In this document: positions 9,007 to 63,953 of the stretch, piece by piece | Position numbering within the stretch: the first letter of the stretch is position 1 | Layout of the letters: each line of letters opens with the position of its first letter | IMG/VR virus record: IMGVR_UViG_2822641076_000001 | Coordinates: 57,830-121,829 of that record | Reading direction: 5' to 3' (one strand) | Origin: a virus | Taxonomy: Duplodnaviria; Heunggongvirae; Uroviricota; Caudoviricetes | Length of the DNA stretch: 64,000 bases | Notes under the pieces: model-generated | Seen by the model: only the letters and a program-made list of their open reading frames with translations | Told to the model about the DNA's origin: nothing | Database searches by the model: none | Position numbers and translations under genes: made by a program

Positions 9007-9027
9007 ACAAGTGTAAAAAATAATGAA
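9007..9027 (+). promoter_or_regulatory. canonical 21-bp phage motif ACAAGTGTAAAAAATAATGAA (putative phage-specific promoter)
   Basis: Exact copy 9 bp upstream of the SD of the SSB-like gene. Confidence 0.5.
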
Positions 9028-9035
9028 TTTAAGGA

Positions 9036-10106
9036 GTGCAGTATATGGCGAAGAAGAAAGAAGAAGTAGTATTAGAACAAACTAAGAGTGCAATCAAATT
9101 ACAAGGGGTTGTATCTCGTATGGATAGCGACCATGCTTTCAAAGAAGGAGAAACAGGCTCAGGAAAGCCTTACAAGAGCTTACGTTTTACAGTAATCACA
9201 AAAGATGCTGAGGGCGAAAAGAATGAAGTACCTGTTGAATTATTCGGTATGGAGCAAGATGAAGTATACGCTTACAATATGAAGAAGAAAGAAGGAAAGC
9301 GCTTCCCATTTGAAAGCCGTGACAACTTACCTGACGGTTATCACTTATTCGGTGTTCGAGTTGGCTTACAACGTGACGAAGATGGAAAGGTTATTGCTGA
9401 AAATCTACATCCTTATGATGCAGTTGAAGAAATCTTCAATGAGCTTCAAGATGGAATGCACATCTACTTGAACGGTGAGATTGAAATCTCTGAGTACGAG
9501 AAAGATGGCGAGAAGAAAGAGCAAAAACGTTTTGTCATGAAATCTCTAGGATTACTAAAGAAAGACATTGATTTCGAGGCAGAAAATTTCGAAGAGACAG
9601 CAGTATTTGAGCAAGAAATGGTATTCGTGGACATGGAAGTTGACCGTGAAACGAAGAAGGCTAAGGTAATTGGTCGTACAATCGGATATGGCGGTAAGTT
9701 TGCTAATGGTTCATTCATCATTGATGGCAATGACAAGGACTTAGAAGGTCTTATCAAAGCGTTTAAGAAGCTTAAATTCGGTGCATTCATGAAAGTTTAC
9801 GGTAAAGTAGTAAACCGAGTGGAGTTCGTAGAGGCTGAGGAAACAGATGCAAAACCAGTAGATAAGAAGAACCCGTTTGCTACAGTAGGTAAAGAGAAGC
9901 ATAAATCTCTTGAGAAACGTACTTCACGAGAGTACACAAACGAACTTCAAATCGAAGGTGTAGAAGCTGAATCATTTGTTACTGCAAAATACAAAGAAGA
10001 AGACTTCGTTCTACCAGTAGAAGAAGAAAAAGCTGAGGAAGCTAACGATGACAATCCATTTGCTGACACTGGCGATGACAAAGAAGACGGAGACGACCTG
10101 TGGTAA
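9036..10106 (+). CDS. putative single-stranded DNA-binding protein with acidic C-terminal tail (356 aa)
   Basis: Two OB-fold-like segments and the C-terminal ...DDNPFADTGDDKEDGDDLW, reminiscent of SSB acidic tails. It precedes a RecA-fold ATPase, as in SSB-Sak4 modules. Confidence 0.35.
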   Translation: MQYMAKKKEEVVLEQTKSAIKLQGVVSRMDSDHAFKEGETGSGKPYKSLRFTVITKDAEGEKNEVPVELFGMEQDEVYAYNMKKKEGKRFPFESRDNLPDGYHLFGVRVGLQRDEDGKVIAENLHPYDAVEEIFNELQDGMHIYLNGEIEISEYEKDGEKKEQKRFVMKSLGLLKKDIDFEAENFEETAVFEQEMVFVDMEVDRETKKAKVIGRTIGYGGKFANGSFIIDGNDKDLEGLIKAFKKLKFGAFMKVYGKVVNRVEFVEAEETDAKPVDKKNPFATVGKEKHKSLEKRTSREYTNELQIEGVEAESFVTAKYKEEDFVLPVEEEKAEEANDDNPFADTGDDKEDGDDLW

Positions 10107-10123
10107 GCCGTTAACTTATACTT

Positions 10124-10144
10124 ACAAGTGTAAAAAATAATGAA
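10124..10144 (+). promoter_or_regulatory. canonical motif copy
   Basis: cttACAAGTGTAAAAAATAATGAA, followed by a 7-bp hairpin (10160-10184) and a second degenerate copy (10185-10206). Confidence 0.5.
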
Positions 10145-10222
10145 TTACATACGTGGAGGGGAGAAGTATGTCCTTTTCTTCTCCACAAATATAAAAAATA
10201 ATTGAAAAGAGAGCGTGATTGA

Positions 10223-11338
10223 ATGTCATTTTTACATGCATTAAACCCGAATAAAGTCAAAGCAGAATTAGAACAATATCTCATGTGTTTGTTTGCACCA
10301 AGTAAGTTTGGTAAAACAACATTTCTATATGATTTAGCTAAGAAGTATTACGGTGGAGATTTAAGTAAGATGTTACTACTTGGTACAGAAGTAGGTTATA
10401 AAGCTTTAAATGGAATCCATGCACTTCCAATCTCTGTTTTCGAGTATGTAGATGAAGTAGATGAAGATGAGGACGAAGAAACAAAAGAAGAGAAGACTGA
10501 CAATGATGCAAGGGGATTCGTTGAGGTTATTGATGAGTTAATTGAGAACCGTAAGACAATTCCGTACAAGCTAATTGTTATTGATACAATTACAGCTCTT
10601 GAGGACTTAGCGGAAAAGCATATCATCAAAAGACAGAAGATTAAGTCTACTGCGAAAATTGAGGATATTTCTGATATCGCATACGGTAAGGGCTACAACT
10701 TAGTTGCAGATGCAATTTATGAGCAAATCGACCGTTTAAAGAAAGCAGGATTCGGAGTATTCATCATCGGTCACAGTAAAACAAAGAAAGTCGAGCAACG
10801 TGATGGTTCTTCTTATGATTTAACTACACTTAACTGTTTAGGTAAAACATCAGACATTATCCTTCGTGAAAGTGACTTAATCATCTATGGTGACTTAGTA
10901 ACAACAGCTAAGAAAGGTATCGCTAAATCAGACCGTTACTTACGATTCCGTTCAGAAGGTAATGTAATCTGTGGTTCACGTTTCCGTCATATGCCTGACA
11001 AAATCAATAACAGCGTTGATGAGTTCTTAGAAGCATTTGAGAATGCAGTTCTAAAGGAATATGATAACGATGAAAAAGCTGTAGAGAAAGCAAAAGTTGA
11101 GCAACAAGCGGAGACTGAGCGCCAAGCTGAGAAGTTCGCTAAAACTCAAAAGGCTGAAATGACAGCAGAAGAAATGCACGCTTGGTTGAAAGAGAGCATT
11201 GGTACTTTGAAACCAGTTCAAAAGCGTAAATTAAAAGGAATCTTTGAGAAGACTCTAGGTACTACTGACTACACAAGTGTAGAAGATGTAGACGTATTAA
11301 AACAAGGTGTGGAAGCTGTTAAGGAATTAATCGGCTGA
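10223..11338 (+). CDS. RecA-fold ATPase, AAA_24/Sak4-like (371 aa)
   Basis: Walker A APSKFGKTTF and Walker B LIVIDTITALED. The size and motif layout fit phage Sak4-type recombination ATPases. Confidence 0.45.
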   Translation: MSFLHALNPNKVKAELEQYLMCLFAPSKFGKTTFLYDLAKKYYGGDLSKMLLLGTEVGYKALNGIHALPISVFEYVDEVDEDEDEETKEEKTDNDARGFVEVIDELIENRKTIPYKLIVIDTITALEDLAEKHIIKRQKIKSTAKIEDISDIAYGKGYNLVADAIYEQIDRLKKAGFGVFIIGHSKTKKVEQRDGSSYDLTTLNCLGKTSDIILRESDLIIYGDLVTTAKKGIAKSDRYLRFRSEGNVICGSRFRHMPDKINNSVDEFLEAFENAVLKEYDNDEKAVEKAKVEQQAETERQAEKFAKTQKAEMTAEEMHAWLKESIGTLKPVQKRKLKGIFEKTLGTTDYTSVEDVDVLKQGVEAVKELIG

Positions 11339-11340
11339 TA

Positions 11341-12150
11341 ATGCCCACCTTTAGCAAGAAAAAGCTCTTTATTATTTTAACTACTCTGCTAGCGGTTGTC
11401 GTAATTGGCACTGCTAGCAAACTTTCATATGATTATTATAATTCCACACAGCAACAGATTCAATCATATCAAGAGAAGTTAACTGAGAGTGATTCCAAAA
11501 TTCAAAAAATCGAGGGAGAACTATCGTCTTCAAAAGAGAAGGTTGAAGGGTTAGAGAAGGAAAAAACAGACTTAGACAACATGAAGAATGACTTAGAACA
11601 GCAAAAGTCTAACCTTGAAGAAGAAATCAAGCAAAGAGATGCTAAGATTTCTGAACTCGAATCGGACAAGCAAAAATTACAGGATAAAGTTAGCTCACTA
11701 GAAAAAGTGAGCTATACTCCTATTCAGAATAAATCCGAAGAGAAACCCAAAGAAGTAAAGAAACAAGAGCCTGCACAAGCTCCCGTAATGCAGTCAGCTC
11801 CAACACCTCAAAAAGAAGAGAGTGAGTCTAGTGGTAATTGGATGAATTTTGTTATCACAGCTTACACAAATCATCCGTCAGAGAACGGTGGGACATATGG
11901 TGGTAAAGTATTGACGAAAAGCGGTCACGACATCACGAATACGATTCATCACAATGGACAACGAATCATTGCTGTAGACCCATCTGTAATTCCGTTAGGT
12001 TCAACTGTAGAAATAGAAGGATATGGACGTTTCATTGCGATTGATACAGGCGGAGCTATTAAAGGGAATAGGATTGATATTCTAGTCGGTAGTGCAAGTG
12101 AAATGAACAGCATCGGTAAACGTGGTGCGAAGGTTCGTATTATTAAATAG
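11341..12150 (+). CDS. membrane-anchored coiled-coil protein with C-terminal 3D (MltA/YocH-like) domain (269 aa)
   Basis: N-terminal TM helix, a long heptad-rich region, and a C-terminal segment ITAYTNHPSENGGTYGGKV...IAVDPSVIPLGSTVEIEGYGRFIAIDTGGAIKGNRIDIL that is typical of the 3D domain. Confidence 0.55.
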   Translation: MPTFSKKKLFIILTTLLAVVVIGTASKLSYDYYNSTQQQIQSYQEKLTESDSKIQKIEGELSSSKEKVEGLEKEKTDLDNMKNDLEQQKSNLEEEIKQRDAKISELESDKQKLQDKVSSLEKVSYTPIQNKSEEKPKEVKKQEPAQAPVMQSAPTPQKEESESSGNWMNFVITAYTNHPSENGGTYGGKVLTKSGHDITNTIHHNGQRIIAVDPSVIPLGSTVEIEGYGRFIAIDTGGAIKGNRIDILVGSASEMNSIGKRGAKVRIIK

Positions 12151-12168
12151 AAGAAAAGGGGAATACAT

Positions 12169-12693
12169 ATGCTTATTATTTTGGAGGGGAATGAGCTAAA
12201 TTTTAAAACAACCATTGCTGAGAAGCTAGCTGAGAGGCTTAAATATGGCGTTGTTAAAGGGAACTCATTCTTAATTGCACAGCTTCCTGCTCAGGATTTA
12301 TTCCAGTATGTAAAAGGAATTGCTGACCACGCTGACAATCTAATTGTTGATAGATATTACATGTCAAATCTCGTATACACAGAGTTGTATGATGGCTACT
12401 CACGATTAGGTGAAAAGGAAGTTAAATACCTTGAAGAACAACTGAAAGAGAAGGCTCTAGTGGTTTACCTTCATGCAAGCCCCGAAACGCTTATTAAGCG
12501 AAAACAGGAGCGTGAAGAGAAGGAAATAGCGGACAATATGTTTGATACGATTAACAAAGGATTTGAGCGTATTATCGTAGGTTCTGAGTTAGATGTATTG
12601 AGTCTAAGCACGGAAGAGCTTACAAGTGATTTTATTGTAGATATCATTATCACAAATATTCGCCACAAAGAGGCGTACCAACTGAATAAATAA
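12169..12693 (+). CDS. thymidylate-kinase-like protein with degenerate P-loop (174 aa)
   Basis: ILEGNELNFKTT stands where TMK has IxxEGxDGxGKTT. The TMK DRY motif DRYYMSNLVY is present, but the P-loop glycines are missing. Confidence 0.4.
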   Translation: MLIILEGNELNFKTTIAEKLAERLKYGVVKGNSFLIAQLPAQDLFQYVKGIADHADNLIVDRYYMSNLVYTELYDGYSRLGEKEVKYLEEQLKEKALVVYLHASPETLIKRKQEREEKEIADNMFDTINKGFERIIVGSELDVLSLSTEELTSDFIVDIIITNIRHKEAYQLNK

Positions 12694-12703
12694 TAAGTAC
12701 CAA

Positions 12704-12744
12704 GGAGATAAGTGTAAAAAATAATGAACTTATCTCCTTTTTCT
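12704..12744 (+). terminator. rho-independent terminator whose 14-nt loop is the core of the phage motif (ggagataagt [gtaaaaaataatga] acttatctcc, then tttttc)
   Basis: Perfect 10-bp stem and a T-tract directly after the stop at 12693. The loop sequence is the motif core. Confidence 0.65.
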
Positions 12745-12756
12745 ATGCATTGGTAG

Positions 12757-12785
12757 TTGACATGCATTTTCCTATTTGATATGAT
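12757..12785 (+). promoter_or_regulatory. sigma-A promoter TTGACA-17-TATGAT upstream of the sigma-factor gene
   Basis: Perfect -35 box and a TATGAT -10 box. It is immediately followed by a canonical motif copy. Confidence 0.55.
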
Positions 12786-12806
12786 ACAAGTGTAAAAAAT
12801 AATGAA
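12786..12806 (+). promoter_or_regulatory. canonical motif copy abutting the sigma-A promoter
   Basis: ACAAGTGTAAAAAATAATGAA, 10 bp before the start of the sigma gene. Confidence 0.5.
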
Positions 12807-12815
12807 TAGAGGAAA

Positions 12816-13550
12816 ATGACAGTGCAAATAGATGAACTACAAGTTATAGAAGAACAAGATTTAACATTACCCGAAAATGGATATAAATTAGTAGCTGAAA
12901 CGATACATAAATATTTTACTTACTATCCTTATTACGAGAAGACACATGGATACACATTCGATGATTTAATGCAATTTGGAATCATTGGGTGGATGAAATC
13001 ATTAGATGCTCATGACGAATCAAAAGGTAAACTTTCAACAATAGCTGTTAGATATATTCGAACTGAAATCTATAATGCAGTGCGAAGTACATATAAAGGT
13101 GTTCGAGTGAGTTACGAGGTTACACGGATTGCGAAATATATGCGTAAGCATCGGGGGAAGAAAACCCTGCAAGAAGTTCAGAAGAAATTTGATGCGTCGG
13201 ATGAAGTTATGAAAAGAGCTTTGTCATTTATGGATATGACAGTGATGAGCCTTGAAATAAAAGTGGGCGAGAGCAATAGAGGAGAGAGTAGAAAGTTAAT
13301 TGACATGATTAGTGATGAGAACGCTCATCATGATATGGAATTAGCAGGTCTCAAAACAGGACTCTCCAAGCGATTAGCTGTCGTATCTGAAACTCAAAGA
13401 ACTTGCATCTTACTTCGGTTACAAGGGTACACCCCAACGGAGATTGGGAAGATGTTGGGAAAGAGTACTGCAACTGTATCAATGCAAATTCATCATGGTA
13501 CAACAAAAATTAATAAAGTGTTCAATCACTCGATTGAAAATGTCGCATAA
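12816..13550 (+). CDS. sigma-70 family sigma factor (244 aa)
   Basis: Region-2-like segment FGIIGWMKSLDAHDESKGKLSTIAVRYIRTEIYNAVRS, and a region-4 HTH in ETQRTCILLRLQGYTPTEIGKMLGKSTATVSMQIHHGTTKI. Confidence 0.75.
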   Translation: MTVQIDELQVIEEQDLTLPENGYKLVAETIHKYFTYYPYYEKTHGYTFDDLMQFGIIGWMKSLDAHDESKGKLSTIAVRYIRTEIYNAVRSTYKGVRVSYEVTRIAKYMRKHRGKKTLQEVQKKFDASDEVMKRALSFMDMTVMSLEIKVGESNRGESRKLIDMISDENAHHDMELAGLKTGLSKRLAVVSETQRTCILLRLQGYTPTEIGKMLGKSTATVSMQIHHGTTKINKVFNHSIENVA

Positions 13551-14160: not shown

Positions 14161-14583
14161 TTGGAACAATTTAAGATTATAGATGAACATGACAAGGTTT
14201 TAGCTGTAGGTATTACGCTGAAATCAAACATCACATTGTTGGAGTGGACTAGCGCCATAAAGACATTATCATTCTATGACAATATCGAACAAGTAAAAGA
14301 ATTTGTTTGCAATAGAGATAAAGGTACAAAGTTAGTGCCATTAAAAGCAAAAGGCAAGGATAGATTGCGAGAATACTATCTGCAAAGAAATGAAGATTTC
14401 AGTGGAGTCAGTGGTACTGGAATTGTAGCGGAAGGTGTTGTTATGCCTAGTGGCAAGTGTATTCATGAGTGGTCACAGTCATATGTCGTCTCTCATAACA
14501 TTTATCCAAATGTGCAGTCAGTACAGCATATTCATGGTCATGAAGGTAGGACAATAGTTAAATTCGTTGGAGAGGAAGAATGA
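14161..14583 (+). CDS. hypothetical protein (140 aa, TTG start)
   Basis: GAAGGAG SD 8 nt before the TTG. Confidence 0.5.
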   Translation: MEQFKIIDEHDKVLAVGITLKSNITLLEWTSAIKTLSFYDNIEQVKEFVCNRDKGTKLVPLKAKGKDRLREYYLQRNEDFSGVSGTGIVAEGVVMPSGKCIHEWSQSYVVSHNIYPNVQSVQHIHGHEGRTIVKFVGEEE

Positions 14584-16833: not shown

Positions 16834-17089
16834 AACATACGAATATCATTCAAGTATAGATGATACCGTCATAGCAAAGGGGCTATGTCATTTTGAGAAT
16901 CAAGAACAAGCAGAAGAATATGCATTCCAATTAGCTTGCCTAGAGTATGCTGAGAAGGCGAGTGACGGGAAGTATCCTACGATATTTGACTTCTATAAGC
17001 AAGGATATACGCCTAGTGAAGCTATTGATAAATACTATGAGGAACAATTAAATCACATTAAATTTAATGTAAAATTGCTTTCCCTATAA
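16826..17089 (+). CDS. hypothetical protein (87 aa)
   Basis: Overlapping start. Acidic protein. Confidence 0.45.
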   Translation: MLKTYEYHSSIDDTVIAKGLCHFENQEQAEEYAFQLACLEYAEKASDGKYPTIFDFYKQGYTPSEAIDKYYEEQLNHIKFNVKLLSL

Positions 17090-17107
17090 GTGTAAAAAAT
17101 AATGTAA
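17086..17107 (+). promoter_or_regulatory. motif copy (ataAGTGTAAAAAATAATGtaa)
   Basis: Copy with one substitution, overlapping the stop of 16826..17089. Confidence 0.45.
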
Positions 17108-20425: not shown

Positions 20426-20446
20426 ACAAGTATAAAAAATAATGAA
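20426..20446 (+). promoter_or_regulatory. motif copy (ACAAGTaTAAAAAATAATGAA) followed by a UUCG-tetraloop hairpin at 20449-20466
   Basis: One substitution. The hairpin gcgagc-ttcg-gctcgt lies between the motif and the SD of recJ. Confidence 0.45.
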
Positions 20447-20487
20447 TAGGCGAGCTTCGGCTCGTCTTTAAATAAGGAGAGTGTTTG

Positions 20488-22475: not shown

Positions 22476-22709
22476 TTGCATTGGAATAGTCATACAAACA
22501 TGTTTTGGTTTGGAGCAAATGGCAATGAATATATGGCATGGAAAGGCTCACATCAAATTTTTATTTATCCATGCGATAAGTACCCAAACCCTCCAAGTGG
22601 GGTAATTCAACATAATAAACGAATTGAAACATTAAAAGATTTTGAAGATGCACTGAATACAGGACATGAATTTGATTGTGTCTATGTTAAAAGTGGCATT
22701 CTTGAATAG
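22476..22709 (+). CDS. hypothetical protein (77 aa, TTG start; an ATG at 22500 is an alternative)
   Basis: AGGAGGG SD 6 nt before the TTG. The track ORF starts upstream at 22443. Confidence 0.35.
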   Translation: MHWNSHTNMFWFGANGNEYMAWKGSHQIFIYPCDKYPNPPSGVIQHNKRIETLKDFEDALNTGHEFDCVYVKSGILE

Positions 22710-22725
22710 AGAGGAGATTAATATT

Positions 22726-22929
22726 ATGAAAGAACAATTGAAAAATAACTTTACACATCACCCACCGAAAGAGGGACAAGTAGAGAAGTATGTAGATATT
22801 AGAAATGAAGCTTTACATTTTGCTAACTTAATTGATAGCTTATGTCCTAACAGCCGTGAGAAGTCATTAGCTATCACGAAGATTGAAGAAGCTGTATTTT
22901 GGGCTAACGCATCAATCGCACGTAATTAA
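22726..22929 (+). CDS. hypothetical protein (67 aa)
   Basis: GAGAGGAG SD before the ATG at 22726 (internal to track ORF 22666..22929). Confidence 0.45.
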   Translation: MKEQLKNNFTHHPPKEGQVEKYVDIRNEALHFANLIDSLCPNSREKSLAITKIEEAVFWANASIARN

Positions 22930-23274: not shown

Positions 23275-23490
23275 ATGCTTAGAACTAAGATTGTAACAGC
23301 TAATACAGATTTGCGATTAGAGAGCAACTTAAATGAAGTACTGGAAACATTAGGAGACAAAGTGGTCAAAGTAAGCTATCAAATGTCTTCTAATGGGAAA
23401 TTTAGTGCGATGGTCTTGTACAATCACACGATGACATACGGAGAGGCAATCAGGAAGATGGAGAGAGAGAATTTACTGTACGCTCATTAA
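23275..23490 (+). CDS. hypothetical protein (71 aa)
   Basis: AGGAGAGGG SD. Confidence 0.5.
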   Translation: MLRTKIVTANTDLRLESNLNEVLETLGDKVVKVSYQMSSNGKFSAMVLYNHTMTYGEAIRKMERENLLYAH

Positions 23491-23517
23491 TGTAAAAAAT
23501 AATTAATTTTAGGGTTT

Positions 23518-23540
23518 ACAAGTGTTTAAAATAATGATAA
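23518..23540 (+). promoter_or_regulatory. motif variant (ACAAGTGTttAAAATAATGAtaa); a second, weaker copy lies at 23487-23506
   Basis: Starts the roughly 500-bp noncoding region 23491-23985. Confidence 0.4.
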
Positions 23541-23865: not shown

Positions 23866-23899
23866 AAAAGATGAGTTTTATACAAATATAATGTTTTAA

Positions 23900-23919
23900 T
23901 AAGTGTAAAAAATAATGAA
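23900..23919 (+). promoter_or_regulatory. motif copy (tAAGTGTAAAAAATAATGAA) 8 bp upstream of a sigma-A -35 box
   Basis: Motif and sigma-A promoter in tandem. Confidence 0.5.
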
Positions 23920-24152: not shown

Positions 24153-24173
24153 ACAAGTGTAAAAAATAATGAA
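24153..24173 (+). promoter_or_regulatory. canonical motif copy
   Basis: ttACAAGTGTAAAAAATAATGAA, 15 bp before the 24188 start. Confidence 0.5.
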
Positions 24174-25008: not shown

Positions 25009-26145
25009 ATGCAGTTCACTTTAGCAGATTATAAGAAGTTTCAACTTGAAAAAGAAGAGGGCTACATTACTGAGAAACGACATCCTTGGTTTAAGAATCT
25101 AGTAATTCTCAATTACACGAACCGAGCAGTTGTTGACCGTCGATGGAACAACGAAACGATGATGGCACGAGGATTAATCCTTGATACGAATACATTAGAG
25201 GTAGTTGCTAAGCCGTTTCCAAAGTTCTTTAATATGGATGAGAATTTAGAGTATCAGCGTGATATTCCACGATGTGACTGTAATCCACCAACGCTAACCG
25301 TGAAGCAGGATGGTTCACTAGGTATCAGTTACATGATGGGTAATGCTTTATTTTGGGCTACTAGAGGTTCTTTTGAATCCAAACAGGCATTTATTGCGAA
25401 TGAGATTTGGGATAGAAAATATGCTACCAAAATCATTAAGGATGAAAAGCTCCGTGAAACGCTACGAGGAATCACTTTATTAGTTGAAATCATTGACCCT
25501 AAGACACGAATTGTCGTGGATTACGAAGGAATGTCTGACTTAATTCTTATTGGAGCTGTTGACATTCGAGGTAAGTTCCCGATTGATTTAACAATGGATT
25601 CGTTAAAAGCTATTGGTCAAATGTTAGATATGCCTGTGACCGAGCAAGTAGATTTAACAATAGATGAAGCAATCAAAATGAAGAGTGAAATTCCTGCTAA
25701 TGAAGAAGGTTGGGTATTGCAGTGGGATAATGGCAAGCGATTGAAAGTAAAGGGCGATGATTATATGGCTGTACACCGTGTAGCTTATGGATTATCACTC
25801 AAGCGAAAACTAGAGGCTTGGCACACTGGCAAAATGAAAGAATTAATCGAGCAAGTTCCCGAAGAGTTCCGTAAAGAAGTAGAAGCATTCCAAGATAATT
25901 GGGACGCACTTGCTATGACAATTACTGAAAACCTTCAATACATATTAGATGAGTGTCTTGCTAATGCAGAGACTCGTAAAGATTTTGCTACAAATGTAAA
26001 AAATAATGAATCTCTAGAGAAAAGATATCAATCTCTAATCTTCACTGGTTATGACACGAAGAAGATTAACATTGATGTAATCAAGATGTATATCTACAAA
26101 AACTACAGAGATTTCATCGAAGAGGGAGAAGAAGAAGATGCTTAA
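25009..26145 (+). CDS. ATP-dependent RNA ligase, T4 Rnl1 (RnlA)-like (378 aa)
   Basis: Motif I [10 protein letters not shown] aligns with T4 Rnl1 KEDGSLVSTY. Upstream ARGLILD...[15 protein letters not shown] matches [43 protein letters not shown] matches KGSIKSEQALMAN. Motif IV/V is [16 protein letters not shown]. Size matches Rnl1. Confidence 0.8.
   Translation: [378 protein letters not shown]
25990..26010 (+). promoter_or_regulatory. intragenic motif copy (ACAAaTGTAAAAAATAATGAA) inside the RNA ligase CDS, 128 bp before the kinase/HD gene
   Basis: The element is encoded within ...[13 protein letters not shown]... A possible internal promoter. Confidence 0.4.
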
Positions 26146-30042: not shown

Positions 30043-30086
30043 ACAGGTGTAAAAAATATTTTAAATACAAGTGTGAAAAATAATTA
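30043..30086 (+). promoter_or_regulatory. two tandem motif variants (ACAgGTGTAAAAAATAttttaa and ACAAGTGTgAAAAATAATtaaa)
   Basis: Two copies 24 bp apart, immediately upstream of the sigma-A promoter at 30095. Confidence 0.45.
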
Positions 30087-30094
30087 AAAAGGTA

Positions 30095-30123: not shown

Positions 30124-30230
30124 AACTATTGTAAGTGAGTTAAGACATGACAGACAAAGGTTACAAGTGAGAAAAATAATAACAACACAACTTACTTATA
30201 ACATTACGAACATAGGGATGGTATCACAAA

Positions 30231-31312: not shown

Positions 31313-31354
31313 ACAAGTGTAAATAATAATAAATAATGCAATAAATAATGAAAA
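31313..31354 (+). promoter_or_regulatory. expanded motif copy (ACAAGTGTAAATAATAATAAATAATGCAATAAATAATGAAAA)
   Basis: The motif with its AATAAT unit reiterated, followed by a 16-bp hairpin at 31361-31425 and another variant at 31423-31442. Confidence 0.4.
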
Positions 31355-31360: not shown

Positions 31361-31425
31361 GTGTTGGTGGTTAGAAGATGCTTTGCTTCTATCGTAAGGA
31401 AGGTGTCTTCTAATCACCAACCACA
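31361..31425. other. long hairpin: 18-nt arms (gtgttggtggttagaaga / tcttctaatcaccaaccaca) with a 27-nt loop containing aaggaaggtg
   Basis: 16 Watson-Crick pairs and one mismatch. No T-tract. Sits between two motif copies. Confidence 0.55.
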
Positions 31426-31461
31426 GGTGTTAAAAATAATGGTTTGAGGTAGGTGTTTAAA

Positions 31462-32512: not shown

Positions 32513-33337
32513 ATGAAGAAGAAGTTAATCAGCGCAACTTTAGCAGGCTTAATTATTGGCGGTGGTATCAGTGGAGCTGTAGTTCATCAAGCTTTCCCAA
32601 AGGAAGTTGTGAAGACTGAGGTTAAAACTGAACAGGTTGGTTCATTGGCTAAGCAAAATGCTATGGCTACCCTATGGACTCAATCATCTGCTGAGGCAAA
32701 CGCATTGCGTTTACAAGCGTATAACGTTGCTAAAGAGCGTGTAGATGAAGCTGTGAAAAATGGAATCGTTCATAAGGCTGTAGTACTCGATATTGATGAA
32801 ACAATTATCAACAATATGGACTACATGGCGTGGGCTGTAAAGAATGAGAAGAAATTCCCTGACCAATGGTCTGAGTGGATTAAATCTGCTCAAGGTGAAG
32901 AGATTGCAGGAGCAGTTGATTTCATTAAACATGCACAAGCAAATGGTGTAGAAGTATTCTTAGTTTCTAACCGAGACAAGAGCGAGATGGAAGGTACTCT
33001 AGAGAATCTGAAAAAGATTGGTTTAGGAGATATCGACCGTGAGCATATCATGCTAAAAGACAAGAGCTCTAGTAAGCAAGAACGCATGGATATGGTAGAA
33101 GTCAATCACAATGTATTACTGTACATTGGAGACAATCTAGCTGACCATAGCGATGATTTTTACAAGAAGAATGTCTCAGAGCGTGCAGAAGCACTGAAAG
33201 CTCATAAGGATGACTTCGGTACTAAATATATCATTCTTCCAAACTCTGCATATGGCGAGTGGGAAGGAACTATCTATAATCATGATTACAGCAAAGACCA
33301 AAATAAAGCACGAATGGATGCTTTAAAAGGATTCTAA
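32513..33337 (+). CDS. secreted or membrane-anchored HAD-IIIB acid phosphatase, 5'-nucleotidase e(P4)/class-B family (274 aa)
   Basis: Signal/TM segment, then motif I VVLDIDETIINN (DxDET), motif III FLVSNRD and motif IV IGDNLADHSDDF. Confidence 0.6.
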   Translation: MKKKLISATLAGLIIGGGISGAVVHQAFPKEVVKTEVKTEQVGSLAKQNAMATLWTQSSAEANALRLQAYNVAKERVDEAVKNGIVHKAVVLDIDETIINNMDYMAWAVKNEKKFPDQWSEWIKSAQGEEIAGAVDFIKHAQANGVEVFLVSNRDKSEMEGTLENLKKIGLGDIDREHIMLKDKSSSKQERMDMVEVNHNVLLYIGDNLADHSDDFYKKNVSERAEALKAHKDDFGTKYIILPNSAYGEWEGTIYNHDYSKDQNKARMDALKGF

Positions 33338-33357
33338 CAAGTGTAAAAAATAATGAA
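33337..33357 (+). promoter_or_regulatory. canonical motif copy directly upstream of nrdI
   Basis: ACAAGTGTAAAAAATAATGAA ends 16 nt before the nrdI start. Head of the nucleotide-metabolism operon. Confidence 0.5.
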
Positions 33358-37993: not shown

Positions 37994-38014
37994 ACAAGTG
38001 TAAAAAATAATGAA
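37994..38014 (+). promoter_or_regulatory. canonical motif copy followed by a cccctc-gtaat-gagggg hairpin (38020-38036)
   Basis: Same motif-then-hairpin-then-SD arrangement as at recJ. Confidence 0.5.
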
Positions 38015-38054
38015 TTTATCCCCTCGTAATGAGGGGAAGCGGAGGGAAAACACA

Positions 38055-41197: not shown

Positions 41198-41201
41198 CAT
41201 G

Positions 41202-41235
41202 GAGAGAGGGGAGAAATCCTCTCTCTTTTTATTTG
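41202..41235 (+). terminator. rho-independent terminator (gagagagg/cctctctc, then ttttt a tttg)
   Basis: 8-bp stem and T-run directly after the nupC stop. End of the nucleotide operon. Confidence 0.7.
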
Positions 41236-41242: not shown

Positions 41243-41264
41243 ACAGATGTAAAAAATAATAAAA
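41243..41264 (+). promoter_or_regulatory. motif variant (ACAgaTGTAAAAAATAATaaaa) 6 bp upstream of a sigma-A -35 box
   Basis: Tandem arrangement identical to 30067-30123. Confidence 0.45.
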
Positions 41265-41865: not shown

Positions 41866-41886
41866 ATAAGTGTTAAAAATAATGAA
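41866..41886 (+). promoter_or_regulatory. motif copy (AtAAGTGTtAAAAATAATGAA); a second copy lies at 41950-41970 (ACAgaTGTAAAAAATAAcGAA)
   Basis: Two copies in the 120-bp gap before 41984. Confidence 0.45.
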
Positions 41887-41983
41887 TATAAATACACTGA
41901 TTGTCGTTTTATAAATAGTACTCTTAACCAAAGAGTCATTTAAAACTCAACAGATGTAAAAAATAACGAAAGGGATGCTGTGA

Positions 41984-51023: not shown

Positions 51024-51443
51024 ATGATTTACCAACATTATAAAGGTGGCTATTACAATGTACTGCAAAAGCCCGTAAGTGTCCGTGAAACATATCTAGG
51101 AGAACAATTCGGGAGAGAGCAAGTTTTCGTTGCTAAGCACACTGAGACAGAAGAAGAGATTCCCGTTTATCTAACCAAATGGTCAGAAGGATACGGACTA
51201 AATTTCTACTCAGTAGACAAGCAGTATGTCATGGAAAAGCCGTTGATTCTATATGAAGGTATCAAAGGTGAAAAATGGTTACGACCATTAAGCATGTTCC
51301 TTGAGCATGTGGAATTTGAAGGCAGATATGTTGAAAGATTTAAAAGGCTTAAAGATGAAGAAGTCTATGACATCATCCGAGAGCTTCAAAAAAATAATAC
51401 AAGTATAAAAAATAATGAAAATGAGAACGTAGAAAATGACTAA
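51024..51443 (+). CDS. hypothetical protein (139 aa)
   Basis: Track ORF. Its 3' end encodes a motif copy at 51399-51419. Confidence 0.5.
   Translation: MIYQHYKGGYYNVLQKPVSVRETYLGEQFGREQVFVAKHTETEEEIPVYLTKWSEGYGLNFYSVDKQYVMEKPLILYEGIKGEKWLRPLSMFLEHVEFEGRYVERFKRLKDEEVYDIIRELQKNNTSIKNNENENVEND
51399..51419 (+). promoter_or_regulatory. intragenic motif copy (ACAAGTaTAAAAAATAATGAA) inside the 3' end of 51024..51443
   Basis: Encodes ...NNTSIKNNENE... 17 bp before the 51436 start. Confidence 0.4.
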
Positions 51444-52920: not shown

Positions 52921-52941
52921 ACAAGTGTAAAAAATAATGAA
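52921..52941 (+). promoter_or_regulatory. canonical motif copy starting right after the ligase stop codon
   Basis: Exact 21-mer. Confidence 0.5.
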
Positions 52942-54291: not shown

Positions 54292-54314
54292 ACAAGTGTA
54301 ATAAATAATGATAA
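54292..54314 (+). promoter_or_regulatory. motif variant (ACAAGTGTAAtAAATAATGAtaa)
   Basis: 22 bp before the thymidine kinase start. Confidence 0.45.
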
Positions 54315-54335: not shown

Positions 54336-54917
54336 ATGGCTGAATTGCAGTATATTCACACAACAATGAACGGTCGAAAATCAGCAGAGCTTATCATGCG
54401 AGTTTTCAGCTTACAAGGACAACAGAAAGAGGTTCTTGTATTCAAGCCAAAGTTAGATACACGAGATGGAGATGCAGTTAAATCACGAGCATTGGACACT
54501 GAAATTCCTGCAACATTAGTTGGTGGAGAAGAAAAAGGCAAGATGTTTGAATTAGCGAAGAAGCATCGTCCGCTTTACATCTTTGTTGATGAAGCTCAGT
54601 TCTTAACAACAGAGCAAGTACTAGAATTAGTAAGCATTGTTGATGAATTGAAGATTGATGTGTACAGTTATGGACTGCTAGTTGATTTCAGAGGAGTTCT
54701 ATTTGAAGGCTCTAAAGCATTAATTGAGAATGCTGATACAATCTCCGATATGCCTAACGTGTGCATCTATTGTACAAATAAAGCAATCCGCAACATGCGA
54801 TTACTTAATAGTAGACCAGTGTTCCACGGAGAAGTGGTTCAAGTCGGTTTCGAAGAGAGTTATCGTAGCATTTGTCGTGAATGCTATAACTCTTTCCAAG
54901 CTACCTCTCAAATGTAA
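54336..54917 (+). CDS. tdk: thymidine kinase with atypical P-loop and C-terminal zinc ribbon (193 aa)
   Basis: TK framework: LVFKPKLDTRDG, FVDEAQFL, GLLVDFRG and CxxC...CRECYNSF. The P-loop reads TTMNGRKSAELI where TK has GPMFSGKSTELI. Confidence 0.65.
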   Translation: MAELQYIHTTMNGRKSAELIMRVFSLQGQQKEVLVFKPKLDTRDGDAVKSRALDTEIPATLVGGEEKGKMFELAKKHRPLYIFVDEAQFLTTEQVLELVSIVDELKIDVYSYGLLVDFRGVLFEGSKALIENADTISDMPNVCIYCTNKAIRNMRLLNSRPVFHGEVVQVGFEESYRSICRECYNSFQATSQM

Positions 54918-54928
54918 AAAATAATGAA
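54909..54928 (+). promoter_or_regulatory. motif copy whose TAA (54915-54917) is the stop codon of the thymidine kinase gene
   Basis: caaATGTAAAAAATAATGAA. Confidence 0.45.
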
Positions 54929-55174: not shown

Positions 55175-55378
55175 ATGATTACAAAGCAACAATATGAGGA
55201 ATTACGTGGTTTAAAAGGATATTCAATTAAGAATATTCTTAAAGACCCAAATATAAATATTAGCAAAGAAGAATTACGATACTTGAGATGCATGTGGTAT
55301 GGAGATTTAAGCAGAGACCCGTTCTTTGTTCCGTATTACATGCGACAGGTCGTTAGTTACGTTGCTAAACAAGTGTAA
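55175..55378 (+). CDS. hypothetical protein (67 aa)
   Basis: AGGAGAGG SD. Its stop codon lies inside the next motif copy. Confidence 0.5.
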   Translation: MITKQQYEELRGLKGYSIKNILKDPNINISKEELRYLRCMWYGDLSRDPFFVPYYMRQVVSYVAKQV

Positions 55379-55389
55379 AAAATAATGAA
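55369..55389 (+). promoter_or_regulatory. canonical motif copy ending 3 nt before the GTG/ATG start of the DNA polymerase gene
   Basis: Exact 21-mer. Contains the TAA stop of 55175..55378. Confidence 0.5.
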
Positions 55390-58542: not shown

Positions 58543-58558
58543 TCTAATTCCTTACAAG
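58528..58558 (+). other. 9-bp inverted repeat (cttgtaagg ... ccttacaag) spanning the polymerase stop and the 5' edge of the next motif copy
   Basis: Perfect stem with a 13-nt loop. Confidence 0.4.
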
Positions 58559-58574
58559 TGTAAAAAATAATGAA
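58554..58574 (+). promoter_or_regulatory. canonical motif copy
   Basis: Exact 21-mer, 17 bp before the 58592 start. Confidence 0.5.
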
Positions 58575-59560: not shown

Positions 59561-59580
59561 AAAAACTTTCAACTAAAGCA

Positions 59581-59613
59581 TTGACAGTTGATACAAGTGT
59601 AATATATAATGAA
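59581..59613 (+). promoter_or_regulatory. composite element: sigma-A -35 box TTGACA (59581-59586) 18 bp from TATAAT (59605-59610), the -10 lying inside a motif variant ACAAGTGTAAtAtATAATGAA (59593-59613)
   Basis: The motif's AATAAT is replaced by a perfect TATAAT with a proper -35 box upstream. Confidence 0.45.
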
Positions 59614-59666: not shown

Positions 59667-59689
59667 ACAAGTGTAAAAATTAATGATAA
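59667..59689 (+). promoter_or_regulatory. motif variant (ACAAGTGTAAAAAtTAATGAtaa) preceded by TTGACA
   Basis: Second of three copies in the 200-bp gap 59560-59755. Confidence 0.4.
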
Positions 59690-59730
59690 TATAAAGGAGT
59701 TCACAAGCGAGTGGACTTTGAAATTTACTT

Positions 59731-59752
59731 ACAAGTGTAAAAAATAATAAAA
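59731..59752 (+). promoter_or_regulatory. motif copy (ACAAGTGTAAAAAATAATaaaa)
   Basis: Third copy, 3 bp before the SD of the 59755 gene. Confidence 0.45.
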
Positions 59753-59754
59753 GG

Positions 59755-60826: not shown

Positions 60827-60835
60827 TTTTTTACA

Positions 60836-60856
60836 ACAAGTGTAAAAAATAATGAA
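60836..60856 (+). promoter_or_regulatory. canonical motif copy upstream of the Prs-like gene
   Basis: Exact 21-mer abutting the SD (GAAGGAGAGGG). Confidence 0.5.
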
Positions 60857-60870
60857 GGAGAGGGAATGAA

Positions 60871-61680: not shown

Positions 61681-62159
61681 TTGAAATTGTAGAAGGCAAC
61701 TTATTAGATGCAACAGAGGATGCTATCGTACAGCAAGTGAATTGCCAAGGTGTGATGGGGAGTGGATTAGCTAAGCAGATTAGAGCTAAACATCCCGAAG
61801 TATACAAAATGTATCAAGCACATTGTGATGGTAAGAATCCACAGGCATTACTGGGAGATATTCAAGCTATATATCTTCGAGACGAAAACAGCAAACCTCA
61901 AGATGAGTATGAGTTCGTTGTGAATATCTTTGGTCAATTAAACTATGGACGAGAAAATGTTTTATATACAAATTATGATGCATTGCGTAAAGGCTTAGTG
62001 ACGCTCAGAGATGATGCTAGCGAATTAGGAGTATCAATTGCTATTCCATATAATCTAGGATGCGGTCTAGCTAACGGTGACTGGGATAATGTTGTTTATC
62101 CAATGATTCAAGAGATTTTCAAAGATTATGGTGTAACAATCTATAAATATAAAGGTTAA
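61677..62159 (+). CDS. macro-domain (ADP-ribose-binding) protein (160 aa)
   Basis: MIEIVEGNLLDATEDAIVQQVNCQGVMGSGLAKQI matches the macro-domain N-terminal consensus (G-D-I-T...IVNAAN...GGGV). ATGA overlap with the Prs-like gene. Confidence 0.7.
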   Translation: MIEIVEGNLLDATEDAIVQQVNCQGVMGSGLAKQIRAKHPEVYKMYQAHCDGKNPQALLGDIQAIYLRDENSKPQDEYEFVVNIFGQLNYGRENVLYTNYDALRKGLVTLRDDASELGVSIAIPYNLGCGLANGDWDNVVYPMIQEIFKDYGVTIYKYKG

Positions 62160-62174
62160 AAGGGGCTAATAATT

Positions 62175-63923
62175 ATGACAGACTTTATTCATTCAACTGA
62201 AATGGAAAACTTTCTTCCACCAACTTTACTGTGCGATTTCTACAAACTATCTCATCGCCCACAGTATCCGAAAGGTACAGAGGTAATCTATTCAACTATG
62301 ACACCACGTTCAAACAAACATATGCCTACGATTGATAAGGTAGTAGTATTTGAGATTCAATCATTCATCAAGGAGTTCTTAATTGGTTACTTTAACAAAT
62401 ACTTCTTTGCACGTAAGAAAGAAGTTGTCTTAGCAGAGTACGCACGAGTTATCAAATTCTGCTTAGGTGAAGAGAATCCTGACACAACTCATATTGCTGA
62501 GCTTCATGATTTAGGATATTTACCAGTACGAATCAAAGCTTTAAAAGAAGGTACGCTAGCACCAATGAAAGTTCCAGTGATGACTATCGAAAATACGATG
62601 CCAAAGTTCTTTTGGATTACTAATTACTTAGAAACATTACTTAGCACTGAGATTTGGCAAGGGATGACTTCTGCTTCAATTGCGTTGCAGTACCGTAAGA
62701 TTTTAAATGAGTACGCTATGAAGACAACTGGAAGCACTGACGGTGTTGTATTCCAAGGACACGATTTCTCAATGCGTGGAATGAGTTCTCTGCAATCAGC
62801 ACAGAAAAGTGGAGCAGGTCACCTATTATCATTCGTAGGAACGGATACTGTCCCTGCAATCTTATACTTAGAGCAGTTCTACAATGCAAACATCGAGAAA
62901 GAGCTTGTAGGAACGAGTATTCCTGCTACAGAGCATTCGGTAATGTGTGCGAATGGTCAAAATGAGTATGAAGTATTCAAGCGTATGATTACAGAGGTTT
63001 ACCCAAAAGGCTTTGTATCTATTGTTTCTGACACATGGGACTTTTGGAACATTGTCGGTGAGATTATTCCACGACTGAAAGAAGTAATTGAAAACCGTGA
63101 TGGTAAAGTTGTTATCCGTCCTGACAGTGGTATTCCTGAGGATATTCTTTGTGGCACTCATATCCCTGACCTTACAGGATTGAAATATGTAGATAACTTA
63201 GAAGATGCTAAAGAGTACTTCTATGAATATCTAATGGAAGAATTACGTGAAGATACTCCGCATGGTGAACATGGAGATACTGAAACGTCAGGGCAATTTA
63301 AGTTTGAAGGCAAATACTATGAATTAGACATCGAAGTTGAGTATGACCGTCATGACAAGCGATTCTACTACATTTGTGACGACAGAGTAAAACGTTTTGA
63401 AGAGTTCACTCCAAGTGTTGCAGATTTAGGATTAATTGAGGCACTTTGGAACATTTTCGGTGGAACTATCACAGAGCAAGGATACAAAGTATTAGCACCT
63501 TGTATCGGAGCAATTTATGGAGATGCAATCACATTAGAGCGTTGTAAAACAATTTGTCATCGTCTTGCAGAAAAAGGTTTCGCATCTACTAACGTAGTGT
63601 TCGGTATTGGTTCATACACATACCAGTTCAACACACGAGATACGTTCGGATTTGCTATGAAAGCTACATATGCAGTGATTAATGGCGAAGAAAAATTAAT
63701 CTACAAAGACCCGAAAACAGATGATGGTACGAAAAAATCTCAAAAAGGTCGAGTAGTAGTAATTGAAGAAGATGGCGAACTGAAATTAATTGATGGATTA
63801 AATAAAGAAGAGCAAGTAAGTTACTTTGGCAAAGACCAATTAGAGCAAGTATTCTTCAATGGTCAACTGCACCGTGACGAAAGCCTACAAGAGATTCGTG
63901 AACGAGTTGCAATGAACTTTTAA
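62175..63923 (+). CDS. nadV: nicotinamide phosphoribosyltransferase (Nampt/NadV family) (582 aa)
   Basis: Nampt signature GHDFSMRGMSS (DFGxRG type). The size and N-terminal FLPPTLLCDFYKLSH fit Nampt. Confidence 0.7.
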   Translation: MTDFIHSTEMENFLPPTLLCDFYKLSHRPQYPKGTEVIYSTMTPRSNKHMPTIDKVVVFEIQSFIKEFLIGYFNKYFFARKKEVVLAEYARVIKFCLGEENPDTTHIAELHDLGYLPVRIKALKEGTLAPMKVPVMTIENTMPKFFWITNYLETLLSTEIWQGMTSASIALQYRKILNEYAMKTTGSTDGVVFQGHDFSMRGMSSLQSAQKSGAGHLLSFVGTDTVPAILYLEQFYNANIEKELVGTSIPATEHSVMCANGQNEYEVFKRMITEVYPKGFVSIVSDTWDFWNIVGEIIPRLKEVIENRDGKVVIRPDSGIPEDILCGTHIPDLTGLKYVDNLEDAKEYFYEYLMEELREDTPHGEHGDTETSGQFKFEGKYYELDIEVEYDRHDKRFYYICDDRVKRFEEFTPSVADLGLIEALWNIFGGTITEQGYKVLAPCIGAIYGDAITLERCKTICHRLAEKGFASTNVVFGIGSYTYQFNTRDTFGFAMKATYAVINGEEKLIYKDPKTDDGTKKSQKGRVVVIEEDGELKLIDGLNKEEQVSYFGKDQLEQVFFNGQLHRDESLQEIRERVAMNF

Positions 63924-63932
63924 TTTTTAATA

Positions 63933-63953
63933 ACAAGTGTAAAAAATAATGAA
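63933..63953 (+). promoter_or_regulatory. canonical motif copy after the nadV stop
   Basis: Exact 21-mer at the window's 3' edge. Confidence 0.5.

Follow-up and report, generated by a model that had tools for sequence, protein, structure and literature searches.

General features of the window

We analysed a stretch of 64,000 nucleotides (hereafter the window) from the Caudoviricetes record IMGVR_UViG_2822641076_000001 of IMG/VR (positions 57,830 to 121,829; coordinates below start at the first nucleotide of the window). It carries many copies of a 21-bp element, ACAAGTGTAAAAAATAATGAA, together with a gene for a homologue of the SroF/MrpR phage repressors (6767-7771) and a gene for a sigma factor of the sigma-70 family (12816-13550). 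A previous sequence-only reading had taken the element for a phage-specific promoter, with the sigma factor as the obvious candidate for its recognition. The results presented here indicate that it is probably the operator box of the repressor.

No close phage or plasmid was found by nucleotide search, and matches to the Bacillus phages of INPHARED are limited to 400 bp at ~80% identity. Three close homologues of the sigma protein are encoded on contigs of ~153 kb, which belong to Bacillus cereus and B. bombysepticus. The gene tables of these relatives list the Pfam families YorF, Phage_SPbeta_YorH, DnaB_C, primase, RecJ and MrpR_N_CB/MrpR_C_cat, and a Pfam scan of the window detected AAA_24, DnaB, primase, RecJ, DNA polymerase III alpha and sigma-70 regions 2 and 4. 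Because the two sets agree, the window is assigned to an SPβ-like prophage of the B. cereus group.

The repeated element

A mismatch search found 11 exact copies of the 21-mer. There are 31 copies with three or fewer mismatches, against 0.00 expected from 100 shuffled sequences, and 43 with five or fewer, spanning positions 53 to 63953 (table 1). The earlier figure of more than 30 copies is thus borne out, and all the positions given with it were located; the copy at 20426 has one mismatch, those given at 23900 and 54909 were one base off, and the near-exact copies at 12708, 25990 and 51399 had been overlooked. All 43 copies are on the + strand.

In the information profile drawn from the 25 best copies, each of positions 1-21 has 1.0-2.0 bits, and the flanks, where there is only a weak preference for T, have no more than 0.6 bits. 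As the sequence-only reading had noted for the −35, the profile contains no second conserved block, −35 or −10, either up- or downstream of the 21-mer. Inspection of the sequence, without folding, showed no dyad symmetry or inverted repeat. The box is therefore best described as a non-palindromic, AT-rich sequence of ~21-24 bp with information at each position.

Among 185,579 species-representative genomes, the exact 21-mer has five single-copy matches in unrelated organisms, which is the chance level; in IMG/VR, it is confined to one contig, with 11 copies. Since the matches in other genomes are only single and chance-like, the multi-copy element is specific to this phage lineage. The box positions are kept in relatives that are 92-94% identical, a divergence too low for measuring selection.

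Table 1. Boxes and associated features of the window. Mismatches are counted against the 21-mer; −35 and −10 hexamers are written with the spacer length between them.
Feature	Position	Strand	Context
Degenerate box, 3 mismatches	53..73	+	7 nt upstream of TTGAAT
Degenerate box, 4 mismatches	1016..1036	+	8 nt upstream of σA promoter TTGACA-17-TATACT
Degenerate box, 3 mismatches	3739..3759	+	upstream of small HTH_36 gene
Degenerate box, 5 mismatches	6363..6383	+	upstream of P6411, ahead of repressor gene
Degenerate box, 3 mismatches	6560..6580	+	8 nt upstream of repressor-gene σA promoter TTGGCA-17-TATAAT
SroF/MrpR-type master repressor gene, tyrosine-recombinase-like fold	6767..7771	+	longest open reading frame from 6704
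Degenerate box, 5 mismatches	8137..8157	+	7 nt upstream of TTAACA-17-TAAAAT, ahead of gene for 129-aa acidic protein
Degenerate box, 5 mismatches	8876..8896	+	spacer and −10 of 12/12 σA promoter 8864-8893
Degenerate box, 5 mismatches	8920..8940	+	between P8864 and terminator 8971
Intrinsic terminator (8971-8994) and T-run	8971..9003	+	end of maintenance/lysogeny module; exact boxes start just beyond
Exact box	9007..9027	+	after terminator 8971-8994; ends 17 nt before YorF-like gene; no σA promoter
Exact box	10124..10144	+	upstream of AAA_24 (YorG-like) gene; hairpin, then weaker box 10185
Weak box, 4 mismatches	10185..10205	+	ends 17 nt before start codon at 10223
Box, 1 mismatch	12708..12728	+	28 nt upstream of −35 of sigma gene's σA promoter
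Exact box	12786..12806	+	directly after −10 TATGAT (12780-12785) of σA promoter P12757
Sigma-70-family gene, group-3-like	12816..13550	+	Sigma70_r2 and Sigma70_r4; between boxes
Box, 2 mismatches	17086..17106	+	upstream of YorH-like gene
Box, 1 mismatch (exact in relatives)	20426..20446	+	upstream of RecJ-like gene; hairpin in 38-nt gap
Weak box, 4 mismatches	23486..23506	+	8 nt upstream of TTTACA
Box, 3 mismatches	23518..23538	+	TTTACA overlaps box start, 17-nt spacer, TAATAT
Box, 1 mismatch	23899..23919	+	8 nt upstream of −35, σA promoter TTGACT-17-TATAAT
Exact box	24153..24173	+	ends 14 nt before start codon
Box, 1 mismatch	25990..26010	+	within coding sequence 25009-26145; next gene 127 nt on
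Weak box, 4 mismatches	30043..30063	+	tandem with box 30067
Box, 2 mismatches	30067..30087	+	7 nt upstream of TTGCTA-17-TACAAT
Weak box, 4 mismatches	30163..30183	+	
Box, 2 mismatches	31313..31333	+	
Weak box, 4 mismatches	31423..31443	+	abuts ribosome-binding site
Exact box	33337..33357	+	upstream stop codon overlaps box start; abuts next ribosome-binding site
Exact box	37994..38014	+	hairpin in 40-nt leader
Box, 3 mismatches	41243..41263	+	after terminator 41199-41232; 7 nt upstream of TTGCAA-17-TACAAT
Box, 2 mismatches	41866..41886	+	
Box, 3 mismatches	41950..41970	+	ends 13 nt before start codon
Box, 1 mismatch	51399..51419	+	in 3' end of coding sequence 51024-51443; next start codon 16 nt on
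Exact box	52921..52941	+	directly after upstream stop codon; ends 18 nt before next start codon
Box, 2 mismatches	54292..54312	+	TTTACA overlaps box start, 17-nt spacer, TAATAT: σA-like promoter on box
Box, 2 mismatches	54908..54928	+	ends 17 nt before start codon
Exact box	55369..55389	+	upstream TAA stop inside box; abuts start of DNA polymerase III alpha (YorL-like) gene
Exact box	58554..58574	+	ends 17 nt before start codon
Box, 2 mismatches	59593..59613	+	TTGACA 6 nt upstream, own TATAAT as −10: 12/12 σA promoter
Box, 2 mismatches	59667..59687	+	TTGACA overlaps box start, 17-nt spacer, TAATAT
Box, 1 mismatch	59731..59751	+	ends 12 nt before start codon
Exact box	60836..60856	+	Shine–Dalgarno GGAGAGGG begins at next base; start codon 14 nt away
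Exact box	63933..63953	+	window edge

A homologue of the SroF/MrpR repressors

The protein encoded by 6767-7771 is similar over its full length to YopR/MrpR of phage SPβ (BLASTP, 31% identity, E 4e-27) and to SroF of phage phi3T (27%, E 4e-24). Its best matches in the PDB are the MrpR/YopR structures 8a0a, 8bjv and 8bj6, followed by 9rd5, which is labelled only as a CB-domain protein. It matches phrog_5830 (E 3e-72), and its orthologues in the relatives carry the Pfam domains MrpR_N_CB and MrpR_C_cat. Among the three close relatives (compared with loci L011 and L015), identity is 97-98% for the repressor and 88-90% for the sigma factor, and the box does not differ between them. This supports the repressor as the reader of the box in a weak but consistent way.

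Two members of this family have been studied experimentally. Chromatin affinity purification sequencing (ChAP-seq) of MrpR revealed ten bound sites in SPβ, which coincide with the long-known SPβ repeated element (SPBRE); binding to SPBRE was found both by ChAP-seq and by electrophoretic mobility shift assay, the SPBRE-bearing promoters PaimR and PyosX are repressed by MrpR, and SPBRE promoters work without phage factors (PMC10516654). The structure of phi3T SroF on its box, CAGTAATTTTATTTTTATTCTTAATG, shows a monomer that clamps the DNA and reads 24 of 26 bp; SroF sites are spread over distant parts of the genome, and the box differs from phage to phage (bioRxiv 10.1101/2025.11.27.690993). An asymmetric, AT-rich, scattered element that is informative everywhere is thus the expected footprint of a SroF-like protein, and matches what is seen in the window.

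On this basis we propose, with good though not complete confidence, that the 21-mer is the operator box of the 6767-7771 protein and the counterpart of SPBRE and of the phi3T repeated element (Phi3TRE). By analogy with these two systems, ACAAGTGTAAAAAATAATGAA is a predicted operator to which the protein would bind; monomeric binding and repression are likewise extrapolated from the published work on relatives. The boxes described here are most likely another instance of the known SroF/MrpR operator boxes, new in a B. cereus-group prophage. They would extend the reach of this recently described monomeric-repressor system from phages of B. subtilis to an SPβ-like prophage of ~150 kb in the B. 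cereus group, and they provide a testable prediction in the form of the operator ttACAAGTGTAAAAAATAATGAAt and a map of 43 sites.

Position of the boxes relative to genes and host promoters

The location of 41 of the 43 boxes is intergenic or at a gene boundary, in a window that is ~85% coding. About 14 boxes end 9-18 nt ahead of a start codon with no σA promoter near; the distance to the start codon is 9-14 nt for boxes 12786, 55369, 59731, 60836 and 24153. The near-exact boxes 25990-26010 and 51399-51419 lie within coding sequence, in frame with the upstream gene, and the protein sequence there is consequently constrained to preserve the box.

Several other boxes stand in one of four registers relative to promoters of the host σA type. 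In the first, the box ends 7-8 nt before the −35 (1016, 6560, 8137, 23899, 30067 and 41243). In the second, the −35 overlaps the start of the box and is followed by a 17-nt spacer and TAATAT (23518, 54292 and 59667), so that box 23518, for example, supplies the −35 and the spacer of a σA-like promoter. In the third, the box forms the spacer and the −10 of a 12/12 promoter (8876 and 59593). In the fourth, it directly follows the −10 of the sigma gene promoter (12786); this box ends 9 nt before the sigma start codon and spans the expected start-site region of P12757.

The first register, with 7-8 boxes ending 7-8 nt before a −35 and the A-tract at about −57 to −44, is what would be expected of an UP element or activator site, in which the A-tract half contacts the alpha C-terminal domain of RNA polymerase, or a phage activator, and boosts σA promoters. 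This explanation leaves the invariant ACAAGTGT half without a role. Nor does it account for the boxes that lie over a −10 or a start site (12786, 8876 and 59593) or for those without a downstream promoter, and at least 30 boxes either have no promoter downstream or overlap a core promoter. We regard it as very unlikely. The sequence-only reading had offered an activator-binding, UP-like element as its fallback; a protein-binding site beside σA promoters is close to the evidence.

The ~14 boxes placed tightly against a Shine–Dalgarno sequence, all in the sense orientation, might alternatively act at the RNA level, as an A-rich translational enhancer, a processing site or the site of a translational regulator. 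Many boxes, however, precede σA promoter elements or lie within them in fixed registers, and would be missing from the transcripts that these promoters produce. The homologous boxes of SPβ and phi3T are DNA operators, and no inverted repeat suggestive of RNA structure was seen in the sequence (inspected without folding). An RNA-level function accordingly seems highly improbable.

A host σA promoter was also considered as a general explanation of the element and rejected: nothing is conserved 16-18 bp upstream of the box, there is no in-register TG extension, and 9/12 matches to the σA consensus occur only at the chance rate.

Comparison with phi3T, SPβ and other phages carrying SroF homologues

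Our scan of the phi3T genome found 25 boxes with six or fewer mismatches of 26 (coding strand ATTAAGAATAAAAATAAAATTACTA). Each of the 25 faces in the direction of the local genes, and the two on the leftward yonP/yonO side are flipped accordingly. About nine abut a Shine–Dalgarno sequence (for example, ...AAAATTAAAA directly followed by AGGAGaattttgATG) and about eight abut a −35 (for example, ...TTACTA directly followed by TTTACA-17-TATAAT). Phi3TRE thus resembles the window box in being long, non-palindromic, AT-rich and informative throughout, in occurring in many copies over the lytic part of the genome, in its orientation with the downstream gene and in its placement, against a Shine–Dalgarno in some cases and against a σA −35 in others. 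Both phages encode a repressor of the recombinase fold, homologous to each other, and the two boxes have the coding-strand core AAGnnTAAAAA(A)TAA in common. Phi3TRE differs in its sequence and in the length of its strongly conserved part (26 bp versus 21 bp in the window). The window, for its part, differs in that its repressor is only 27% identical, its boxes are denser (43 in 64 kb versus 25 in 128 kb), its exact copies adjoin ribosome-binding sites, a sigma gene is also carried, the element is apparently borne on a plasmid and the host is from the B. cereus group.

The coding-strand box extracted from the SPβ genome is ACAAATACAAAWAATATGTATA. Boxes at yopV, yopM and yonX abut a Shine–Dalgarno sequence and coincide with ChAP-seq peaks. 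SPBRE shares with the window box its repetition at the starts of lytic genes and its presence before the replication block and before the repressor operon; its binding by the master repressor is experimentally established (PMC10516654). The same three placements are seen as well: SPBRE forms the −35, spacer or −10 of σA promoters at yonP, yosX, yorZ, yorE and yorM, lies upstream of the −35 at aimR and yonX, and abuts the Shine–Dalgarno at yopV, yopM and yonX. It differs in having only ~10-14 copies and a core, ...AAAWAATATGTATA, with a real −10, and its repressor is 31% identical to that of the window.

A scan of IMG/VR with the SroF protein alignment yielded 50 loci, which were examined over 10 kb on each side of sroF. 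Simple repeat discovery showed a lineage-specific repeated box in many of the 50 loci, located on the strand of the repressor gene wherever both strands were scanned. We therefore observe not only the element, its contexts and the repressor homologue in the window, but also a family-wide association between SroF genes and repeated boxes. The box types include TTAAGAAATAAAATATAATAAA in loci L055-L058, the phi3T type in L043-L050 and the SPβ type in L030, L033, L039, L040 and L071. The nearest non-trivial relative of the window repressor (L023, 38% identity) has the box most similar to that of the window, ACAAATGnAATATAAAATGAA, in ~18 copies, all on the + strand. Box similarity may thus track repressor relatedness, with L023 nearest in both respects, although the AT-rich composition limits the weight of this correlation.

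A divergent region of the B. cereus relative (L151) contains 16 more boxes, each facing in the direction of the gene that it precedes. Four of the 16 are fused in a single register to strong σA promoters (box...ATGAT directly followed by TGACA-18-TATAAT), an arrangement that suits occlusion of the −35 rather than an independent promoter.

These comparisons bear on a further possibility, that the box is a dual module in which a weak host σA core (AATAAT, positions 13-18, as the −10) overlaps the repressor site. At 8876, at 59593 and at positions 9032 and 14040 of L023, TTGACA or TTGACT is present 6 nt before the box, and positions 13-18 (TATAAT or TAAAAT) serve as the −10 of promoters scoring 11-12/12; a marginal −35-like hexamer (9/12) is suitably spaced before several of the exact boxes, and the activity of SPBRE promoters without phage factors (PMC10516654) is in keeping with such a design. 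Yet 9/12 matches occur at the chance rate in AT-rich DNA (76 found versus 77 expected), and a start ~7 nt past AATAAT would cut the Shine–Dalgarno where the gap is 9-14 nt. Because most exact boxes have neither a −35 nor a TG extension, we consider a dual module unlikely. If it were true, the boxes abutting ribosome-binding sites would be repressible internal promoters and not roadblocks.

The sigma factor gene

The presence of sigma-70 regions 2 and 4 in the 12816-13550 protein agrees with the sequence-only reading; its best matches are the SigB/F/G models, far below the cut-offs. Being flanked by boxes, the gene is probably a repressed lytic gene. It is apparently a lineage-specific insertion in the conserved yorG-yorH block.

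Several observations would be expected if the 21-mer were a compact phage promoter, read by the host core polymerase with this sigma factor and driving the middle (replication) genes. The sigma gene itself is behind a σA promoter and an exact box, which would suit positive autoregulation. Exact boxes without σA −35/−10 pairs directly precede genes and are all co-oriented, the strong terminator at 8971 is followed by only an exact box before the next genes, and −10-like hexamers (AAAAAT and AATAAT) are found within the box. The box also resembles the promoters of phage polymerases and sigma factors as a conserved motif before co-oriented genes that is absent from the first-expressed module; it is unlike them in being fused to host σA hexamers and in belonging to a family that tracks the repressor.

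Phage-specific promoters include the T7 class promoters, the SPO1 gp28 middle promoters and the T4 late motif TATAAATA. Those that depend on sigma factors are bipartite or consist of a short −10-only motif; group-3-like sigma factors with regions 2 and 4 use bipartite promoters spanning 25-30 bp, and continuous promoters of ~20 bp belong to single-subunit polymerases. Conservation of the box is continuous over 21 bp, with no −35 at 16-18 bp, and the lack of a low-information spacer makes it a poor fit to the bipartite promoter of a group-3-like sigma factor. No single-subunit polymerase was found in the material examined. In the relative contig, tblastn detected no YonO-type RNA polymerase in the pieces sampled (all but ~53 kb), and this contig is not among the best 80 of 210 matches in a scan for YonO-type loci.

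The distance to the genes is a second difficulty. Boxes end 9-14 nt before several start codons, so that a start downstream of the box would leave no room for a Shine–Dalgarno sequence; for the ~14 boxes with gaps of 9-18 nt, a sigma-dependent start would be feasible only if it fell on the last bases of the box or within them. The fixed registers with host σA hexamers likewise speak against a separate sigma promoter.

Finally, similar boxes are present in phi3T, SPβ, L023 and other lineages, all without a homologue of this sigma factor. Among the SroF loci (10 kb on each side of sroF) and the full SPβ and phi3T genomes, tblastn detected a sigma homologue only on the same B. cereus contig, and locus L026 has SroF, YorF, AAA_24, YorH, DnaB, primase and RecJ in synteny with no sigma gene between them. 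Repeated boxes therefore follow the repressor and not the sigma factor. The boxes of SPβ and phi3T, moreover, bind the repressor experimentally (PMC10516654; bioRxiv 10.1101/2025.11.27.690993).

Given the continuous 21 bp, the gaps to start codons, the σA registers and the relatives that have boxes and no sigma factor, a sigma-dependent promoter appears improbable, and we do not propose the 12816-13550 protein as the reader of the box. What survives of the original proposal is a phage-specific cis element that controls transcription at gene starts. The sigma factor may have its regulon in the late region, which the window does not include; no second motif that could be its promoter was found in the intergenic DNA of the window.

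The L026 repeat was not used as evidence because it includes the Shine–Dalgarno and is not clearly a repressor box. A terminator followed by a box, as a sign that a promoter is needed, has one clear case only (8971, then 9007), and it does not discriminate because other strong terminators precede σA promoters. The consensus sequences of Bacillus alternative sigma factors (SigH RnnGAAT, SigB, SigF/G and SigK) were also compared with the box; neither the −35 nor the spacing was consistent, and transcription would be predicted to start within the Shine–Dalgarno.

In a variant of the sigma hypothesis, the repressor box would have been co-opted as the site of an acquired SigF/G-like sigma factor, with repressor and holoenzyme competing for the same 21 bp. 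We hold this to be a long shot. If true, the exact boxes beside ribosome-binding sites would be sigma-dependent middle promoters, each silenced individually in the lysogen, and the phage would possess a one-site switch from lysogeny to middle expression that is not known in SPβ or phi3T.

Proposed action of the repressor

Returning to the operator hypothesis, and by analogy with phi3T, one repressor monomer would clamp each asymmetric box in the lysogen and read almost all of its base pairs. Boxes situated 7-8 bp before a σA −35, or over the −35, spacer or −10, would occlude host RNA polymerase, as would the box directly after the −10 of the sigma promoter; this occlusion is suggested by the registers described above. 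The exact boxes located between a stop codon and a ribosome-binding site in the replication operons may function as high-affinity roadblocks or, alternatively for the boxes adjacent to a Shine–Dalgarno, may silence weak internal starts, which is the most speculative part of the model. On induction, an antirepressor would strip off the repressor and all boxes would open together.

The strength of the boxes is related to the genes that they precede. The 11 exact boxes all belong to lytic genes, and every copy in the maintenance/lysogeny module has 3-5 mismatches. This pattern fits a repressor that binds weakly at lysogenic genes and strongly at lytic ones.

Several points weigh against this interpretation. 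The best (exact) boxes are those without a recognizable σA promoter, and such boxes fit a dedicated promoter more obviously than a roadblock, a role that has not been reported for SroF in the literature. In phi3T, it is the promoter-abutting boxes that seem to resemble the crystallised box more closely (as read from the table of sites, not from a computed average). The resemblance between the box families lies in AT-rich sequence and could be partly fortuitous. The density of 43 boxes in 64 kb is high compared with ~14 and 25 per genome in SPβ and phi3T. Lastly, the genes from yorF-like to thymidylate kinase (9036-12693) are behind the terminator 8971-8994 with only boxes upstream, so that their transcription depends on either read-through from P8864 or a start at a box.

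The promoter-less exact boxes raise the question of whether a clamp-like repressor also roadblocks transcription within operons. Two features of the window are noteworthy in this family: the high density of exact boxes beside ribosome-binding sites and the lineage-specific sigma gene between two boxes. For genome annotation, long, conserved and co-oriented intergenic repeats in SPβ-like phages should be taken as repressor boxes and not as promoters of a phage polymerase or sigma factor.

The first 8.9 kb and the boundary at 9 kb

Exact boxes are absent from the first 8.9 kb, as had been noticed from the sequence; the copies found there have 3-5 mismatches. The terminator that precedes the first exact box is also real (8971-8994 and a T-run). 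This region has strong σA promoters at 1045, 1688, 3629, 5795, 6411, 6589 and 8864, of which P1688, P3629 and P5795 have no box. It encodes segregation, replication-initiator and repressor genes, the functions that a plasmid prophage requires in the lysogen. From 9007 on, genes of replication and nucleotide metabolism bear exact boxes.

The change in box strength near 9 kb had been interpreted as a boundary between temporal classes. The change itself stands; a division between maintenance/lysogeny genes and repressed lytic genes accounts for it at least as well as one between early and middle genes, and we prefer it. The maintenance/lysogeny module (1-8.9 kb) must remain on and has degenerate boxes only. 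Those before the repressor gene (6363 and 6560) could be autoregulation sites, by analogy with the yopM SPBRE in SPβ.

P8864 (TTGACA-18-TATAAT, 12/12) is the strongest σA promoter of the window. The terminator 8971-8994 follows ~80 nt downstream, with no open reading frame between them; the degenerate boxes 8876 and 8920 lie within the unit as a whole (8864-9003). This unit could produce a small RNA or a regulated leader before the replication genes.

Directly 3' of the repressor gene is a gene for a Cro/C1-type helix–turn–helix protein (7787-8059), followed at 8074-8087 by CGAACCGCTGTTAT, which resembles a LexA box and has a perfect left half. The next protein, of 129 aa (8461-8850), has an acidic N-terminal half, and its gene lies downstream of a degenerate box and a σA promoter. 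The position makes this protein a candidate for a Sar-type antirepressor; BLASTP showed no significant similarity to the Sar-type antirepressors YopT or phi3T_99.

Probable maintenance as a plasmid

The window prophage is probably plasmid-borne. A protein of 403 aa (1757-2968) has weak matches to actin-like families (ALP_N, MreB-like_C) and is followed by a Pro/Glu/Val-rich protein of 191 aa (3011-3586); the pair looks like a segregation module of the ParM/ParR type. The region 5390-5660 contains about nine copies of GCCTATCAC(N3-4)ATGATACAC-like units, which are inverted-repeat iterons, directly downstream of an initiator-like gene with HTH_36 and DnaA_N matches (4332-5339). The array probably serves as a replication origin of the plasmid type or as a site for partition. 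The actin-like segregation protein, the DnaA_N/HTH_36 initiator and the iterons together suggest that the prophage is maintained as a plasmid, and the whole contigs of ~153 kb in the relatives, with the ParM/ParR-like pair, likewise suggest an extrachromosomal SPβ-like prophage.

Other observations

G+C-rich hairpins are present between box and ribosome-binding site at 20447-20484 (GCGAGCttcgGCTCGT, after box 20426) and at 38015-38054 (CCCCTCgtaatGAGGGG, after box 37994). They could be leader structures or pause sites.

Stretch 5178-8830 of L151 (IMGVR_UViG_2541047117_000001, ~105.5-109.2 kb) consists of five short-gene cassettes, each with a box and then TTGACA. A near-palindrome, GTTATCATTTATAATAAC, is conserved after the TTGACA and overlaps the −10; it looks like a second operator, belonging to another regulator and stacked on the repressor box.

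A more distant lineage, with partial homology to the N-terminus of SroF (IMG/VR loci L065-L068), has a 30-bp element, ATTAATAGATAACAAGATTTGTTTTTAAAT, in 10-20 copies per 20 kb, so that its repeated box is likewise very dense.

Two of the genes among those under box control have orthologues in the relatives that carry the Pfam families Acb5 (14161-14583) and Acb2_Tad1_hairpin (22666-22929). They are candidate sponge or nuclease genes directed against the cyclic oligonucleotide-based antiphage signalling system (anti-CBASS) or against Thoeris.

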